DNA of 64,000 nt from Verrucomicrobiia bacterium (GTDB taxonomy: Bacteria; Verrucomicrobiota; Verrucomicrobiia; Limisphaerales; UBA11358). Shown here piece by piece: positions 2,388-58,656 of the stretch. A program made the position numbers and the translations under genes. The notes below the pieces were generated by a model, which saw only the letters and a program-made list of their open reading frames with translations, had not been told where the DNA came from and ran no database searches. The stretch is taken from contig DASZXB010000047.1 of NCBI GenBank assembly GCA_035546095.1, forward strand, positions 26,905-90,904, read 5' to 3'. Positions within the stretch are counted from its first letter, which is position 1. Each line of letters begins with the position of its first letter.

Positions 2388-2993
2388 ATGACGACCGCGA
2401 ACAAAGTCACGATTCTGCGAATCCTGTTGATTCCCTTCTTCGTCGTCGAAACGATTTATTATGTCCGCATCGGAAATGAAACTCACCGGCTGTTTGCCAT
2501 TTTATGTTTCGGCGTCGCCGCGATTTGCGACGGCGTGGACGGTTACATCGCGCGCCGTTACAATCAAATCAGCGAGCTTGGAAAAATTCTCGACCCGCTC
2601 GCGGACAAATTACTGCTCGTTTCCGCCATCGTGCTGTTGAGTTTCGACAATGCGCCCTATCTCCGGCAAATTCCGCTCTGGCTCACCGGCACAATCATCG
2701 GACGCGATTTACTGTTGGGCATCGGCGCGGTGGTGATTCATTTCGTCGTCGGCAAAATCACCGTGCGCCCGCGATTTTTGGGAAAGTGCGCGACGGTTCT
2801 GCAAATGCTCGTCGTGACTTGGATTTTGCTGAAATGGGATTTGCACGTCGGCGTCTTGAAAGTTTGGATTTACGGCGCGGGCGTTCTCACCGGCATCTCC
2901 GGCTTGTTATATATTTTCGACGGAATGAGGCAATTGAGTTCGCACCCGGCAAGTTCAGCAACAAATTCCAAAACCGCGGATGGACATGAATGA
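2388..2993 (+). CDS. CDP-alcohol phosphatidyltransferase (PgsA-like)
   Basis: DGVDGYIARRYNQISELGKILDPLADK matches the D-G-x2-A-R...G-x3-D-x3-D signature. Multi-TM protein. Confidence 0.85.
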   Translation: MTTANKVTILRILLIPFFVVETIYYVRIGNETHRLFAILCFGVAAICDGVDGYIARRYNQISELGKILDPLADKLLLVSAIVLLSFDNAPYLRQIPLWLTGTIIGRDLLLGIGAVVIHFVVGKITVRPRFLGKCATVLQMLVVTWILLKWDLHVGVLKVWIYGAGVLTGISGLLYIFDGMRQLSSHPASSATNSKTADGHE

Positions 2994-3114
2994 ACACGGA
3001 TTCCTAAACGCAAAGACAAATTATTTTCCACCTGCGTTCATCAGGCAAATCGGCGATTAAAAAATGTTTTCATCCGTGTTTATCTGTGTTCATCTGTGTT
3101 CATCTGTGGTTAAG
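2979..3114. repeat. CACAGA-family hairpin repeat
   Basis: gatggacatgaatgaacacggat faces catccgtgtttatctgtgttcatctgtgttcatctgtggttaag. The left arm supplies the last codons of the upstream CDS. Confidence 0.65.
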
Positions 3115-3593: not shown

Positions 3594-3613
3594 GTTCGAC
3601 AATGATGTAAATC

Positions 3614-3692
3614 GGTGGGGCGAGCGTCCGCGCGAGCCGCGAACATTTTAAGACCCAGCCAAGTTTGGCTCGTGAGGACACTCGCCCCACCG
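3614..3692. repeat. GGTGGGGCGAGCGTCC-family long imperfect hairpin
   Basis: ggtggggcgagcgtccgcgcgagcc...ggctcgtgaggacactcgccccacc. A half copy lies at 20053. Confidence 0.7.
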
Positions 3693-9259: not shown

Positions 9260-9269
9260 AATAAAATTT

Positions 9270-9331
9270 GGGAGGGTTGCCGTGTCGGCGACCCCAAACC
9301 TGTTTTGGGACGGCGGCACGCCGTCCCTCCC
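9270..9331. repeat. long imperfect hairpin repeat element
   Basis: gggagggttgccgtgtcggcgaccccaaa...tttgggacggcggcacgccgtccctccc, between the REC gene and acnA. Confidence 0.6.
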
Positions 9332-9379
9332 AACTTGACACGCCCGCACTTCGCCTTCATTTTCTTGGAATCGAAGAAC

Positions 9380-14100: not shown

Positions 14101-15816
14101 CTATGCGCGGACTTCGACAATCTGGCCTTTGAAAATTTCCAATGCTTTTTGAATCAACGGGTCATTCTTGAAATCATTTTTGTTGAACAGCACGGGCGCG
14201 GTTTTTTTTTCCGATGGCGCTGATGCAACGGATTTTGCAGCGACGGGCGTGGTTTGCGGAATTGTCGCGGCTGGCGGCAATTTTATTTTTTCTCCCACAG
14301 GCGTGTCGGCTTTGATGAATTTGATCTGGCAATTCGCGTGACCGAGTTCGGTCAGTTTGGTTTGCAACAACGTGTGATTACGCGCGTTGTCCACCAGACC
14401 GAGATGGTCTTCAAATTCAGGGTCAAAACCGATGGTCAAAAGATTTTTCTCAAATGAAACCGGATGCGCTTCCAGCAGATAAGTTCGGACAAACGGACTG
14501 ACGCGACCGACGGCGTCAATCAATTTTGACCATAGTTCCGACAAATCAGCGGAAATCGGTTGCGTTTCATGCAGCACGGCTGGTGTGGCAATTTCTTGGT
14601 GAACTTTTGTGGCTGGCTTTGTCGCGGGTGCGGTTTGAGAATGGCCGGCAGAAACGGTTGCTGAAAGATTTCCCGAACCGCTGCGCAATTGATTAAGCTG
14701 CTTCAAGACGGAATCAATTGAAATGGCATTGCGCGTTTCAATGGCTTTAAGCAATGCGACTTCGAGGAAAATTTTCTTGGACGCGGCGTCGCGCAGATTC
14801 AATTCCGCTTCAGCGAACGTTTCCAAAATGCGCGTGAGCGAATCGGCGTTGGCCAAAGCAGATTGCTCTTTGAGCGCGGCAATTTCCGCTTCGGAAACTT
14901 CGAGCAAATTCAGGTCGCCGCGTGAAATCTGGAAAATGAGCAGATTGCGAAAATGATTCAGCAAATCGGAAAGCAAACGTCCCAAATCTTTGCCGCCTTG
15001 CGCGAGTTCGCTCAATTGCGTGAGCGCGGTTTGGATTTCGCCGTTGAGAACGGCCTTGCTCAAATTCAAAATCTGATTTTCGGCAGCAAGGCCAAACATC
15101 GAAAGCACGTCGGCTTCCTCGATTTTGTCGCCGCAAAAACTGATAAGCTGGTCGAGCGTGGATTCGGCGTCGCGCATTCCGCCATCCGCGCCGCGCGCAA
15201 TCGCGAACAATGCGGCCTCGTCAATTTTTACTTTTTCCTTTTTGGCGATTTCCGCGAGATGCTTGGTAATCAACGCCGCCGGAATTCGGCGCAAATCAAA
15301 CCGCTGGCAACGCGACAAAATAGTCGGCAAAACTTTTTCCGGATCGGTCGTTGCGAACATGAATTTTACGTGTGCGGGCGGTTCTTCCAAAGTTTTTAAC
15401 AGTGCATTAAATGCTGCCGTTGAAAGCATGTGCACTTCGTCAATGATGTAGATTTTGAACGGCGAATTGGCCGGAACGTATTTGCAGGTTTCGCGCAATT
15501 CGCGGACCTGTTCGACGCCGTTGTTGCTCGCGCCGTCAATTTCCAGAACATCGAGCGAACGGCCTTCGGTGATTTCCTGAACGCGCGTATCGTTGTCGTC
15601 AAAATCAATTTTTGGTCCGCCGGTGCAATTCAGACATTTCGCAAAAATTCTCGCAATTGTGGTTTTTCCAGTTCCGCGCGGGCCGCAAAAAAGATAAGCA
15701 TGTGCGATGCGTTTTTGCTCAATCGCGTTGGCGAGCGTTTGCGTGACGTGCTCCTGCCCGACCACATCGGCGAAGCGTTGCGGGCGGTATTTGCGCGCTA
15801 TGACTTGATAACTCAT
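14101..15816 (-). CDS. dnaX: DNA polymerase III subunit gamma/tau
   Basis: MSYQVIARKYRPQRFADVVGQ, GPRGTGKTT Walker A, and DEVHML. The ORF's upstream extension runs into a repeat, so it is trimmed to the ATG at 15816. Confidence 0.9.
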   Translation of the reverse strand: MSYQVIARKYRPQRFADVVGQEHVTQTLANAIEQKRIAHAYLFCGPRGTGKTTIARIFAKCLNCTGGPKIDFDDNDTRVQEITEGRSLDVLEIDGASNNGVEQVRELRETCKYVPANSPFKIYIIDEVHMLSTAAFNALLKTLEEPPAHVKFMFATTDPEKVLPTILSRCQRFDLRRIPAALITKHLAEIAKKEKVKIDEAALFAIARGADGGMRDAESTLDQLISFCGDKIEEADVLSMFGLAAENQILNLSKAVLNGEIQTALTQLSELAQGGKDLGRLLSDLLNHFRNLLIFQISRGDLNLLEVSEAEIAALKEQSALANADSLTRILETFAEAELNLRDAASKKIFLEVALLKAIETRNAISIDSVLKQLNQLRSGSGNLSATVSAGHSQTAPATKPATKVHQEIATPAVLHETQPISADLSELWSKLIDAVGRVSPFVRTYLLEAHPVSFEKNLLTIGFDPEFEDHLGLVDNARNHTLLQTKLTELGHANCQIKFIKADTPVGEKIKLPPAATIPQTTPVAAKSVASAPSEKKTAPVLFNKNDFKNDPLIQKALEIFKGQIVEVRA

Positions 15817-15822
15817 TTGATT

Positions 15823-15912
15823 GCGGAGTTCGGAATGCGGAGTTCGGAATGAATTTGAGCTTGGACGGCGCTCAATTCCGTATTCCAGACTCTGCATTCT
15901 GAATTCAGAATG
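15823..15912. repeat. GGAATGCGG-family hairpin repeat between the SRP RNA and dnaX
   Basis: gcggagttcggaatgcggagttcggaatgaatt faces aattccgtattccagactctgcattctgaatt. Related copies lie at 27358 and 27953. Confidence 0.6.
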
Positions 15913-16005
15913 CCGGGGTGACTGCGGCAGATGCAAAGCAAACTACCGTTGCTGCCTTCCGGCCCTGGCGGGATTTGTAAGTCCACAATCCGCAGGCCCC
16001 GGCGG
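15911..16005 (-). ncRNA. ffs: signal recognition particle RNA (small, 4.5S type)
   Basis: The minus strand reads ...CCGCCAGGGCCGGAAGGCAGCAACGG..., matching the conserved SRP domain IV motif. A closing helix CCGGGGCCTGCGG / CCGCAGTCACCCCGG is present, and the position just upstream of dnaX is classic for ffs. Confidence 0.8.
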
Positions 16006-19535: not shown

Positions 19536-19544
19536 AGAAAAATT

Positions 19545-19622
19545 TTAACCACAGATTCACACAGATAAACACAGATTTTAGAATTTATTTATCGGTATCC
19601 ATCGGTGTCCATCCGTGGTTAA
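19545..19622. repeat. CACAGA-family hairpin repeat
   Basis: ttaaccacagattcacacagataaacacagat faces atcggtatccatcggtgtccatccgtggttaa. Confidence 0.7.
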
Positions 19623-19630
19623 ATTTCGCC

Positions 19631-26216: not shown

Positions 26217-27746
26217 TCAGTTTCCAAAAGTCTCGGCGACGCTTTCGCAGATTACGGCGACGATTTTTTCCAATTGCGCCTGCGTCGTGCAATACGGCGG
26301 CATCAGCACAATCACGTTGCCAATCGGTCGCGTCAAAACACCGCGCTTGGCCATTTCATCGCACACACGGATGCCCGCGCGCTCGCGCAAATCAAACGGC
26401 TCGCGCGTCTGCCAATTTTTCACCAACTCAATTCCAGCAATCAAACCCACTTGCCGCATGTCGCCGACATTTGGCAATTGCCAAAGCGATTGCAATTCGT
26501 CGCGCAGATTTTTTTCCAGATTTTGCCGCGCGCGGATTGAATTTTCACTTTGCAAAATTTGCAGACTCGCCAACGCCGCGCTTGCGCCAAGTTGATTGCT
26601 GGTGTAACTGTGCCCGTGAAAAAACGTTTTGAACTTGTGATATTCGCCGAGAAAGGCGTTGAAAATTTCTTGCGTCGTCAACGTCGCTGCCATCGGTAGA
26701 TAACCGCCGGTCAAACCTTTTGCGAGACAGAGTAAATCCGGCTGCACGTTTTCGTGCTGGCAGGCAAATAACGTAGCGCAGGCATCTTGCCTGCGTTTTT
26801 TATCTTTCAAGTCCACAGGCTGGAAGCCTGCGCTACTTTCTCCAGTTCTTCCAAATCCGGTCATCACTTCATCCGCAATCAACAATGCGCCGTGTGCACG
26901 CGCAATTTCCGAAACGCGCTTGAGCCAGCCTACTGGTTGCGGAATCATTCCTGCTGCGCCTTGCATCAATGGCTCAAACACAAATGCGGCAAATGGATTT
27001 CCTTTTTTCTTTTGCGTGGAAAATTTTTGCTCCACTTTGCCGACACATTCAAAATGGCATTTACGGTAATTCCGCGCATCGTCGCGTTCCGGCTTCGCGC
27101 GATTGAATTTGCAACGATAACAATACGGCGATATCACTTTGTCCGATTTGAAAAGCAATCCGCCGTAAGCCTTGTGAAATAAATCAATGTGGCCGAGCGA
27201 AACCGCGCCAACCGTATCGCCGTGATACGCGCCATCGAGCGAAAGAAATCGAGGGTTTTTGATTTTCTTCGCTCGTCGCGAAAATTCATAAGCGAGTTTC
27301 AACGCGACTTCAAGCGCAGTCGAGCCGTCGTCGCTGAAAAAAACTTTGTCCAAATATGGAGCGCGGAACGCGGAGCGTGGAATTTTTACGCCGCGTTTTA
27401 TTTTTCTTGATTCCGCATTCCGCATTCCGCATTCCGCATTTTTAACGAGTTTTCCCGCCAACAAACTGGCCGGTTCATTCGCGAATCCAAGTGCGGAACT
27501 GTGCGCGATTTTTTTTAATTGCCGCGAAATCGCCGCGTTGATTTTCGGATGATTATGGCCGTGCAGGTTTGTCCAGATGGAAGAATTGGCGTCCAAAAAT
27601 TTTCTGCCGCGCGCGTCACGCAATTCCGCGCCTTTGCCTTCGACAATCACAATCGGCTCGCGTCTCAGCCAATCGCGCATTTGCGTGAACGGATGCCAGA
27701 CAAATTTGCGGTCGAGTTGCGCCAGTTTGTTCATCATCAAGTCCAA
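26217..27746 (-). CDS. bioA: adenosylmethionine-8-amino-7-oxononanoate aminotransferase with two in-frame insertions
   Basis: DEVMTGFGRTG...LFACQHENVQPDLLCLAKGLTGGY (PLP lysine region) and VFFSDDGSTA. At 509 aa it is longer than I recall typical BioA to be (about 430-460 aa), because of repeat-derived inserts. Confidence 0.85.
   Translation of the reverse strand: MDLMMNKLAQLDRKFVWHPFTQMRDWLRREPIVIVEGKGAELRDARGRKFLDANSSIWTNLHGHNHPKINAAISRQLKKIAHSSALGFANEPASLLAGKLVKNAECGMRNAESRKIKRGVKIPRSAFRAPYLDKVFFSDDGSTALEVALKLAYEFSRRAKKIKNPRFLSLDGAYHGDTVGAVSLGHIDLFHKAYGGLLFKSDKVISPYCYRCKFNRAKPERDDARNYRKCHFECVGKVEQKFSTQKKKGNPFAAFVFEPLMQGAAGMIPQPVGWLKRVSEIARAHGALLIADEVMTGFGRTGESSAGFQPVDLKDKKRRQDACATLFACQHENVQPDLLCLAKGLTGGYLPMAATLTTQEIFNAFLGEYHKFKTFFHGHSYTSNQLGASAALASLQILQSENSIRARQNLEKNLRDELQSLWQLPNVGDMRQVGLIAGIELVKNWQTREPFDLRERAGIRVCDEMAKRGVLTRPIGNVIVLMPPYCTTQAQLEKIVAVICESVAETFGN
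26773..26836. repeat. hairpin repeat element embedded in frame in bioA
   Basis: gtagcgcaggc...gcctgcgctac is an 11-bp terminal inverted repeat with inner hairpins gcaggca-tctt-gcctgc and caggct-ggaa-gcctg. It encodes ESSAGFQPVDLKDKKRRQDACAT. Confidence 0.7.
27358..27440. repeat. GGAATGCGG-family hairpin repeat embedded in frame in bioA
   Basis: ggagcgcggaacgcggagcgtggaat faces a (ttccgca)x4 heptamer run. It encodes ...ECGMRNAESRKIKRGVKIPRSAFRAP... Confidence 0.7.
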
Positions 27747-27749
27747 AGT

Positions 27750-28918
<1,169 letters not shown>

Positions 28919-28937
<19 letters not shown>

Positions 28938-32286: not shown

Positions 32287-32479
32287 GATTTCTGCCCGCC
32301 GCCTGCTCCGGCGAAGAAACAACACATAAACTTAGAGCCTGCGCGCGGCAACAAGCAGTCGTCACGCCAGAGTTTCCCCCTCCACCCTCCGAAACTCTGT
32401 CATGCCGACTGCTCGCTGCCGTGCTCGTAAGTCAGTTGTTTCTCCGCCTCCGCACAGGTGAAGGCGGCGGGCAGAAATC
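32287..32479. repeat. 18-bp perfect inverted repeat (extendable imperfectly to about 40 nt) enclosing about 157 nt
   Basis: gatttctgcccgccgcct (32287-32304) faces aggcggcgggcagaaatc (32462-32479). Secondary arms ggcgaagaaacaac / gttgtttctccgcc lie inside. Confidence 0.75.
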
Positions 32480-36399: not shown

Positions 36400-36430
36400 A
36401 GTTCATCTTCAAGCAATCGGTTTCGCCAGT

Positions 36431-36451
36431 CCGCCGCGCTCCGCGCGGCGG
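36431..36451 (-). other. conserved GC hairpin with a GGA loop (candidate ori, packaging or terminator signal; phage A)
   Basis: The coding strand reads ccgccgcgc-gga-gcgcggcgg, a 9-bp stem. The same core CCGCGC-GGA-GCGCGG occurs in phage B at 41019-41045. Confidence 0.5.
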
Positions 36452-36598
36452 CCTACCGAACCCGAATCACCCTTGCCTTTCACACGTGAGAGAATTCTCA
36501 CAACCTGAACGATGCTATAGCCCGTCAGCCGGTTTAATGAAGCCGTATAGCCACATGCGCTGGTGTCCAGCAGCCGACTGTAAATGCAGTTTGTTACG

Positions 36599-58590: not shown

Positions 58591-58650
58591 GCCACGGAGT
58601 CACAGAGACGCAGAGAAAATTTTAACTCTGTGTCTCTGCGTCTCGGTGGC
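58591..58650. repeat. CACAGA-family hairpin repeat between pgk and tpiA
   Basis: gccacggagtcacagagacgcagag faces ctctgtgtctctgcgtctcggtggc. Confidence 0.65.
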
Positions 58651-58656
58651 TAAAAA

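Follow-up and report, generated by a model that had tools for sequence, protein, structure and literature searches.

GTAG-type repetitive extragenic palindromes (REPs) are defined as short (20-40 nt) imperfect palindromes with the tetranucleotide GTAG at one end (Di Nocera et al. 2013, PMC3733652), and two inverted REPs joined by a spacer form a hairpin of the REPIN (REP doublet forming hairpin) type (Bertels & Rainey 2011, PMC3116915). Intragenic, in-frame GTAG REPs have also been catalogued, most of them in Opitutus terrae (70 table entries); dimers encode 20-30 amino acids, and the single case of REPs at the same site is Xanthomonas recB (PMC3733652). Here we describe bioA in a 64,000-nt stretch of DNA from a Verrucomicrobiia bacterium (assembly GCA_035546095.1, contig DASZXB010000047.1, positions 26,905 to 90,904), which is referred to in its whole length as the window. 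Two hairpin-repeat segments lie in frame within this gene, a REP dimer at 26773-26836 (site C) and a hairpin built of heptamer arrays at 27358-27440 (site A), and we consider it likely that both are selfish or neutral repeat DNA, translated where loops of a functional BioA permit extra residues.

Two other kinds of described repeat offer a comparison. Rickettsia palindromic elements occur in frame in unrelated housekeeping genes, where they are translated and are compatible with protein fold and function, according to the account of Ogata et al. (2000, 2002) given in PMC10969869. These elements and the bioA segments are alike as in-frame palindromic inserts, a likeness of behaviour only: the former measure ~100-150 bp and belong to an obligate intracellular alphaproteobacterium, whereas the latter measure 64-83 nt and belong to free-living soil and freshwater Verrucomicrobia. 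Heptameric simple sequence repeats, with the units GGGAATC in Xanthomonas and GGGGAYT in Nostoc (Rehm et al. 2015, PMC4692102), are of unknown origin; they prefer about four copies, occasionally form inverted stem-loop pairs, and are intergenic and under-represented in genes (PMC4692102). Further heptamer repeats are the cyanobacterial STRR (short tandemly repeated repetitive) sequences and TAACTGA of Beggiatoaceae (PMC4679880). The window's units GCGGAAT and TCGGAAT contain the same GGAAT core as the Xanthomonas unit. In contrast to the Xanthomonas and Nostoc repeats, the arrays reported here lie in frame in enzyme loops, are clustered in bioF and bioA, and switch their unit at a fixed position.

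A GTAG REP dimer in a bona fide bioA

The bioA coding sequence (26217-27746, minus strand) encodes 509 amino acids when read from a TTG codon. Its true start is probably an ATG a few codons further in, given that an identical protein from a Verrucomicrobiae metagenome-assembled genome (MAG), P0001, is 506 amino acids long. The open reading frame (ORF) scores 457.8 bits against the TIGR00508 bioA profile (cutoff 405), and its product matches BioA in the PDB with E = 3e-113. Residues K343, in the AKGLTGG segment, and D292, which we take to be the catalytic lysine and the aspartate binding pyridoxal phosphate (PLP), respectively, are invariant in both of the BioA alignments used, one of close relatives only (A1) and one to which archaeal, Aquificae and Firmicutes homologues were added (A2). 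AlphaFold gave a useless model with A1 (predicted local distance difference test score, pLDDT, 45) and a good one with A2 (pLDDT 87, predicted template modelling score 0.90), and the latter superimposes on Bacillus subtilis BioA (3du4) with a target-normalised Foldseek TM-score of 0.92. With a score above the curated cutoff, the conserved residues in place and the BioA fold, this is a bona fide BioA. Comparison of the window with four related loci (L001, L002, L004 and L005) gave dN/dS values of 0.09-0.14 for the core of the gene, which points to strong purifying selection there. The original prediction of an intact 509-residue bioA thus stands, and its suggestion that the gene might be a decaying copy is not supported.

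Alignment to B. subtilis BioA (3dod) falls into three blocks (residues 6-101, 132-303 and 326-505 of the window protein), so that residues 102-131 and 304-325 are extra; these breaks agree with insertion before VFFSDDGS and after GFGRTG, as had been proposed. In the A2 model, no stretches but the two inserts drop far under the remainder of the protein: residues 305-314 and 318-321 of site C are the only ones with pLDDT below 50, and a 10-residue block of site A (121-130) averages 58. A search of the literature for structural detail on the BioA loops returned nothing usable. Elsewhere in the protein, residues 207-234 (~27045-27128) carry a PYCYRC...C..EC motif with four cysteines (C209, C212, C230 and C234) that is invariant in the clade and present in Methanocaldococcus jannaschii BioA (6zhk); B. 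subtilis BioA lacks this motif, which may form a metal site.

At site C, two GTAG-tagged REPs are joined head to head in a dimer of the REPIN type. The 11-nt terminal sequence of this element, GTAGCGCAGGC, has just two occurrences in the 64 kb, one at each end and on opposite strands, which bears out the original prediction of a repeat hairpin with 11-bp inverted ends in frame in bioA. The first unit, GTAGCGCAGGCATCTTGCCTGCG (26773-26795, plus strand), consists of GTAG followed by the stem halves CGCAGGCA and TGCCTGCG around a TCT loop. The second, GTAGCGCAGGCTTCCAGCCTGTG (26814-26836, minus strand), consists of GTAG followed by CGCAGGC and GCCTGTG around TTCCA, and fits the pattern from metagenomes described below. 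Each end therefore reads as GTAG, a G+C-rich stem of 7-8 bp and a loop of 3-5 nt. The 24-nt arms of the whole element are 83% complementary, and its sense-strand RNA folds at -36.4 kcal/mol (z = -8.0; none of 200 shuffles folded as well). GTAG-tagged stem-loops number five in the window against 0.8 in shuffled sequence. The element has the GTAG-tagged short palindrome of a GTAG REP, and its inverted pair and spacer fold as one hairpin; the usual extragenic location is lacking, the element lying inside the bioA ORF. It encodes (E)SSAGFQPVDLKDKKRRQDACAT between GFGRTG and LFACQHE, and adds a net 66 nt (22 codons) relative to the closest insert-free orthologue, L002 (GCA_035776755.1), which served as the reference for net insert sizes.

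The REP family of site C extends well beyond bioA. At least 120 metagenome stretches contain the pattern GTAGCGCAGGCNTCNNGCCTG, 3-5 times in some of them, and 13 exact inverted doublets are among the matches listed. Within those same matches, 26 of 134 REP elements, counted as single units or inverted doublets, sit in frames that stay open in both directions for 80 codons or more. Among the hosts are ClpB, GlnE, ValRS, HrpB, MutS, a hybrid histidine kinase, a pyrimidine-nucleoside phosphorylase and a SpoIIE phosphatase, and the peptides SSAGVPPA, VAQASCLP and RRDACAT recur. The reading frames seen are those giving SSAG, VAQA and ACAT; the frame that would expose the TAG of GTAG (G-TAG-C) was never seen. 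Judged by this dispersal of its sequence family over unrelated loci and genes, the site C element cannot have arisen in place. The REPs of O. terrae are alike in having a GTAG tag on a G+C-rich stem-loop, inverted dimers, a multi-copy family, dispersed in the present case over metagenome stretches, and in-frame intragenic copies, and the peptides they encode (GTGVPPV, AGGAPAL) have a similar flavour to the SSAGVPPA...GGTPALL found here; bioA is missing from the published list (PMC3733652), and the present host belongs to Pedosphaerales/Limisphaerales, not to Opitutales.

Several other repeats of this kind were seen in passing. One metagenome contig (L151), which also carries the window's REP family, contains a truncated gene (939-1205) resembling a RAYT (REP-associated tyrosine transposase), with 49% identity to residues 1-89 of Escherichia coli RayT; it lies between inverted GTAGGGTGGGC REPs, as the remnant of a REPtron. 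A ValRS gene at the locus L159 (3587-6976) holds both an in-frame REP and a Pfam LPD3 (large polyvalent protein-associated) domain inside its catalytic domain. Within the window, an intergenic GTGG-tagged REP-like dimer at 3613-3692 has GGGCGAGCGTCC in common with the site C insert of the BioA locus L018, and further intergenic hairpin repeats lie at 9265-9336, 32343-32424 and 58598-58651.

Heptamer arrays in bioA, in bioF and between genes

The site A segment (27358-27440) folds as a hairpin; each arm is an array of a 7-nt unit, GCGGAAT in the sense direction, and the two arrays are inverted relative to each other, as had been predicted for this part of bioA and as is borne out by tandem and inverted repeat searches and by folding. 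On the plus strand its arms span 27358-27383 and 27410-27440, with the loop at 27384-27409. The right arm holds 4.4 perfect copies of ATTCCGC (Tandem Repeats Finder, TRF), and the array opposite holds 3-4 imperfect complementary heptamers (GGAGCGC, GGAACGC, GGAGCGT, GGAAT). The paired 21-nt arms are 81% complementary, the fold reaches -32.5 kcal/mol (z = -3.4), and the GTAG tag is lacking. The segment encodes ECGMRNAESRKIKRGVKIPRSAFRAP and adds a net 72 nt (24 codons) before KVFFSDDGS relative to L002. Rfam gave no family for either bioA insert, just sub-threshold matches to miRNA-like or generic hairpins, and a sliding minimum-free-energy scan of the window, at the threshold used, flagged several G+C-rich coding stretches without an evident repeat character and did not single out the bioA hairpins.

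The element at site A recurs in place in the sister species L001, where it differs by five substitutions and a deletion of 9 nt; L009 and L011, which are more distant, also have it there, as do many A1 proteins (AECG[MVL]R[NS]AE...SA[FL]R.P); in shorter versions the right arm stands alone (L006, CACTCCGCACTCCGCATTCCGCACTCCGCA; L012). Because it is common to all of these at the same place, it is best regarded, on sequence comparison, as an old resident of the loop and not a recent insertion. The notion of mobile hairpins inserted without a break of frame consequently holds for site C, and is amended for site A to an old, lineage-wide repeat loop. Homologous insertions at the same positions in orthologues of unrelated taxa, named in the original prediction as the mark of a native lineage-specific loop, have a partial counterpart at site A, though the loop itself is repeat DNA. 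The near-identity of this element in the window and L001 (~94%) was considered as a sign of function and rejected: third positions of the flanking codons 76-119 are equally alike (0.93-0.96), so the identity is no evidence for function. The whole 5' third of bioA appears, from this comparison, to be young or recombined between the two. More broadly, the divergence of window bioA from that of L001 (4001-5506) is mosaic, with third-codon identity of 0.80-0.96 over codons 1-120 and 0.45-0.70 over much of the rest, which suggests recombination within bioA between lineages.

These observations bear on the idea that the segments are native lineage-specific loops, generated by slippage and by template switching on quasi-palindromes, whose likeness to intergenic hairpins reflects a genome-wide mutational bias. 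The sharing of the site A hairpin by distant members of the clade (the window, L001, L009 and L011), the short forms made of the right arm alone, the want of transposon-like termini on the heptamer arrays and the BioF array described below, which brings no net change in length, all fit this idea. It is countered by site C being a GTAG REP dimer of a family dispersed over at least 120 metagenome stretches and unrelated genes, by the presence of non-homologous elements at the same site in sister species, and by a related heptamer hairpin in intergenic DNA 11 kb away. We consider an origin as native loops improbable.

Directly upstream of bioA lies bioF (27750-28937, minus strand; 395 amino acids; 439.2 bits on TIGR00858 against a cutoff of 426.45). 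A perfect array of 4.7 copies of AATTCCG (27967-27999) fills a loop of BioF that we call F2 (NSEFGIRNSEF). The related heptamer run predicted for bioF is accordingly present, but it forms no hairpin (z = -1.2) and the loop is of ordinary length, with no net insertion. A degenerate array (AAGTCCA, 4.6 copies, 76% matches) covers the bioF stop and the bioA start at 27739-27770; units akin to this one are present in L004 and L006, in loops of BioF. Searching the window with GGAATGCGGAATGCGG at up to two mismatches returned seven matches against 0.11 expected, at 15825-15847, 27413-27442 and 27971-27993. The first of these falls in an intergenic heptamer hairpin (15818-15907; units GCGGAGT and TCGGAAT; z = -5.2), the family member upstream of dnaX whose presence the original prediction had correctly noted. 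This hairpin fills the whole gap from the 3' end of the signal recognition particle (SRP) RNA gene to the dnaX ATG at 15816 and, having no U-run, is not a canonical terminator. The SRP RNA gene itself (15908-16004, minus strand) is of the bacterial small type (RF00169, 67 bits).

Two side observations concern the same kind of repeat. In the loci L004-L061, a second BioF loop (F1, at about residue 174) and the BioF C-terminus are variable and carry heptamer arrays or REP-like hairpins (for example VQSPKSKVQS and GELCEPQTRSGTRVTRPSE); F1 is empty in the window's BioF. Intergenic hairpins at 19541-19626 and 2979-3094 (also 701-727) have arms made of inverted 10-nt arrays (CACAGATNNN / TGTGTTCATC), an architecture like that of the heptamer hairpins with a different period.

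The heptamer arrays are not spread evenly. Over 60 loci, bioF-bioA has 0.33 arrays per kb, 7 times the 0.046 per kb of the flanking DNA, which totals 805 kb. By gene, they were found in 14 of 38 bioF, 10 of 39 bioA and 2 of 39 copies of the adjacent, syntenic amidohydrolase gene, which shows no length variation; these counts come from loci related by descent. In BioF, the F2 array keeps a fixed length of 33 nt and a fixed register across species, and its unit differs from species to species (AATTCGG, AATTCAA, AATTCGA, AATCGGC, AAATCGG). Copies are about 90% alike within an array and 66% alike between species, at dS values of 0.5-0.9 between these species, a pattern that looks like concerted evolution.

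Such a pattern could mean that selection in the bio operon acts on the heptamer arrays, and possibly on the hairpins too, as functional elements of DNA or RNA: signals for mRNA stability or processing, sites of transcriptional or translational pausing, or protein-binding repeats. Their periodicity would then be kept by selection or active homogenisation, and they would not be passive debris. Their density in bioF-bioA, the nearly array-free neighbouring gene of constant length and the F2 array in register are what this explanation has in its favour. Against these stand a unit that is not conserved (GCGGAAT, AATCCAA, ATTTACG, GATTGCG and others), which implies no common binding specificity, a close relative (L002) wholly without the elements, and many lineages with only decayed, hairpin-less remnants. 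The counts are, moreover, not phylogenetically independent, and conservation of site A between the window and L001 is that of the neighbouring third codon positions. We find a selected function doubtful on this balance. A narrower form is that the heptamer arrays are a distinct, actively homogenised coding repeat that, in Pedosphaerales/Limisphaerales, prefers the loops of BioF and BioA, the PLP enzymes encoded in the bio operon; we hold this to be rather unlikely. Were it true, conversion or re-templating, or selection on a 7-nt periodicity in DNA or RNA, would preserve the frame and the near-perfect state of each array even as the unit changes between species.

A tandem unit whose length is not a multiple of three, placed inside a coding sequence, also recalls the contingency loci of phase variation, and perfect arrays of 4-5 copies and one MAG with a disrupted site A (L033) might suggest switches that put bioA or bioF out of frame, and back again, as a single 7-nt unit is added or dropped. 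We think this very improbable. What breaks site A in L033 is a point stop codon and not a change in unit number, near-identical A1 proteins show no differences in unit number, F2 is fixed at 33 nt across species, and 4-5 copies are short for efficient slippage. Contingency loci differ further in that the present arrays are short and sit in a housekeeping biosynthetic gene, with no copy-number variation seen among the A1 proteins or the F2 arrays.

Recurrent insertion at three loops of BioA

The comparison rests on 120 close homologues (72-100% identity, 457-534 amino acids) and 80 genomic loci. Among 61 loci, extra sequence of at least 18 nt was present at site A in 42, at site C in 40 and at a third position, site B (after YEFTRR), in 9. 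Across about 60 genomes of Pedosphaerales/Limisphaerales, different species carry non-homologous inserts at these three sites. These include heptamer hairpins of different units (GATTGCG, ATTTACG, GTTCAGA and others), REP dimers of several families (GTAGGGCGCGC, GTAGCGGCGGTC, GTAGGACAGGC and others), single REPs and sequences that no longer fold; roughly half of the BioA inserts in the relatives have a fold z of about zero or above. Outgroup BioA genes from Nitrospira, Chthoniobacterales, Methylacidiphilales and Omnitrophota contain no inserts at all. In the Limisphaera sp. 4302-co genome (L034), the additional segments of bioA are short ones only. A comparison of all inserts with the fetched loci by BLAST gave matches of arm length only (21-32 nt), the flanking DNA being too little for estimates of family size.

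Within the close relatives, turnover at these sites can be followed. A neighbour-joining tree built on the core alone places the window and L001 as sister to L002, which reads GFGRTGKLFAC and has no insert at site A; the site C insert is also missing in L004 and L005. The L001 protein is 84% identical to the window's BioA, yet carries a heptamer hairpin at site C. The two insertion points are one codon apart (GGA-GAAA-[REP dimer]-GTTA in the window and GGA-[heptamer hairpin]-AAA-CTG in L001), so that relative to the Lys codon the L001 insert comes before and the REP dimer after. At site A of L027, a REP dimer is nested in the remnant of a heptamer array. The REP family of site C is found in the loci L008 and L031 and fills site B in L008 and L115. 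Non-homologous inserts at the same loops in different species mark the three loops, as far as these alignments go, as recurrent hot spots of gain, decay, loss and re-invasion and not as the result of one event.

A further observation concerns the residues next to site C. In L024, P0003, P0009, P0020, P0042 and others, the Thr codon of GFGRTG has given way to the GTA of the REP's tag, so that the motif reads GFGRVG. From the alignments, this appears as the alteration, by insertion, of a near-invariant residue beside the Arg two residues before site C, presumably the equivalent of the substrate-site residue R253 of E. coli.

The phenomenon has already been described in kind for Verrucomicrobia, and what is new is that the same loops are hit repeatedly across an order. 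It goes beyond the single case of Xanthomonas recB in that three loops of BioA are reused by several REP families in about 60 species.

Probable translation and fate of the inserts

At least 25 unrelated insert types, in about 60 genomes, are multiples of three and free of stop codons in the bioA frame. The exception is L033, a Limisphaerales MAG contig (JANOBC010000215.1, 1963 bp) with an in-frame TAA at ~880-885 inside the site A hairpin of a bioA that is otherwise conserved (70% identity over residues 4-480); the TAA may mark a pseudogene, result from an assembly error or be recoded. Decayed, hairpin-less inserts are retained as conserved peptide, for example in the VTCHVDDKAIAKIADQPAAAK group. 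A constraint on frame is needed only if the inserts are translated, which disfavours excision or bypass. Removal or bypass through RNA processing or ribosomal hopping, or decay of the gene, had been offered as alternatives to tolerance in the original prediction, and the strong hairpins within the mRNA and the position of site C beside a conserved active-site motif give them some appeal. Dozens of unrelated inserts that stay in frame and stop-free, the maintenance of decayed inserts as peptide, a core dN/dS of ~0.1 and the absence of an Rfam family match all run counter to them, and we regard them as extremely unlikely. Of the options first proposed, tolerance as surface loops fits best, with the dips in model confidence, the TM-score of 0.92 and the dN/dS values in its favour; the part of that claim which places the loops at the surface is suggested by low pLDDT and by the breaks in the alignment. 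The inserts are accordingly most readily seen as loop residues of a functional BioA, with their translation into protein made probable by the retained frame and their neutrality presumed.

On the reading of both segments as tolerated repeat DNA, a sequence of events can be proposed. RAYT tyrosine transposases are thought to spread REP dimers, and we infer that mobilisation by a RAYT was also at work here. The dimer would have entered bioA after the Gly codon of GFGRTG and before the Leu codon of LFAC, read in such a frame that the TAG of GTAG is not a codon. Insertions that broke the frame or struck structured parts of the enzyme would have been purged, which would leave only copies that lie in two or three surface loops and keep the frame open. 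Surviving inserts would then decay to ordinary loop sequence, lose an arm, be deleted or be re-invaded, and this succession of survival, decay and re-invasion may be what renders the loops hypervariable across the order Pedosphaerales/Limisphaerales.

Several points weigh against this reading. GTAG REP/REPIN systems have a cognate RAYT gene in the same genome, and the 64-kb window yielded none in a tblastn search with E. coli RayT. The site C REP sequence occurs in the window as the bioA doublet only, the other, intergenic GTAG-tagged stem-loops (36430-36456 and 50574-50626) belonging to different sequence families. The solvent exposure of the loops is presumed from low pLDDT and alignment breaks. 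Given its nearness to the Arg that we equate with R253, neutrality of the site C insert is not guaranteed. Passive tolerance, finally, leaves unexplained both the clustering of arrays in bioF-bioA, at seven times the density of the flanks with the neighbouring gene nearly empty, and the near-perfect arrays whose unit varies with the species.

The inserts explain why PGAP downgrades these BioA proteins to 'aspartate aminotransferase family protein', and why BioA lengths range over 457-534 amino acids. The concentration of arrays in bioF and bioA, together with their apparent concerted evolution, poses a small and now testable question. In summary, our findings show in a second order of Verrucomicrobia the in-frame REP insertion that was known from Opitutus, and make visible the life cycle of an insert, from a fresh hairpin through the loss of one arm and decay to re-invasion. 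They amount to a natural experiment in which three loops of BioA, one of them beside a presumed substrate-site Arg, tolerate 7-43 extra repeat-encoded residues in dozens of species.

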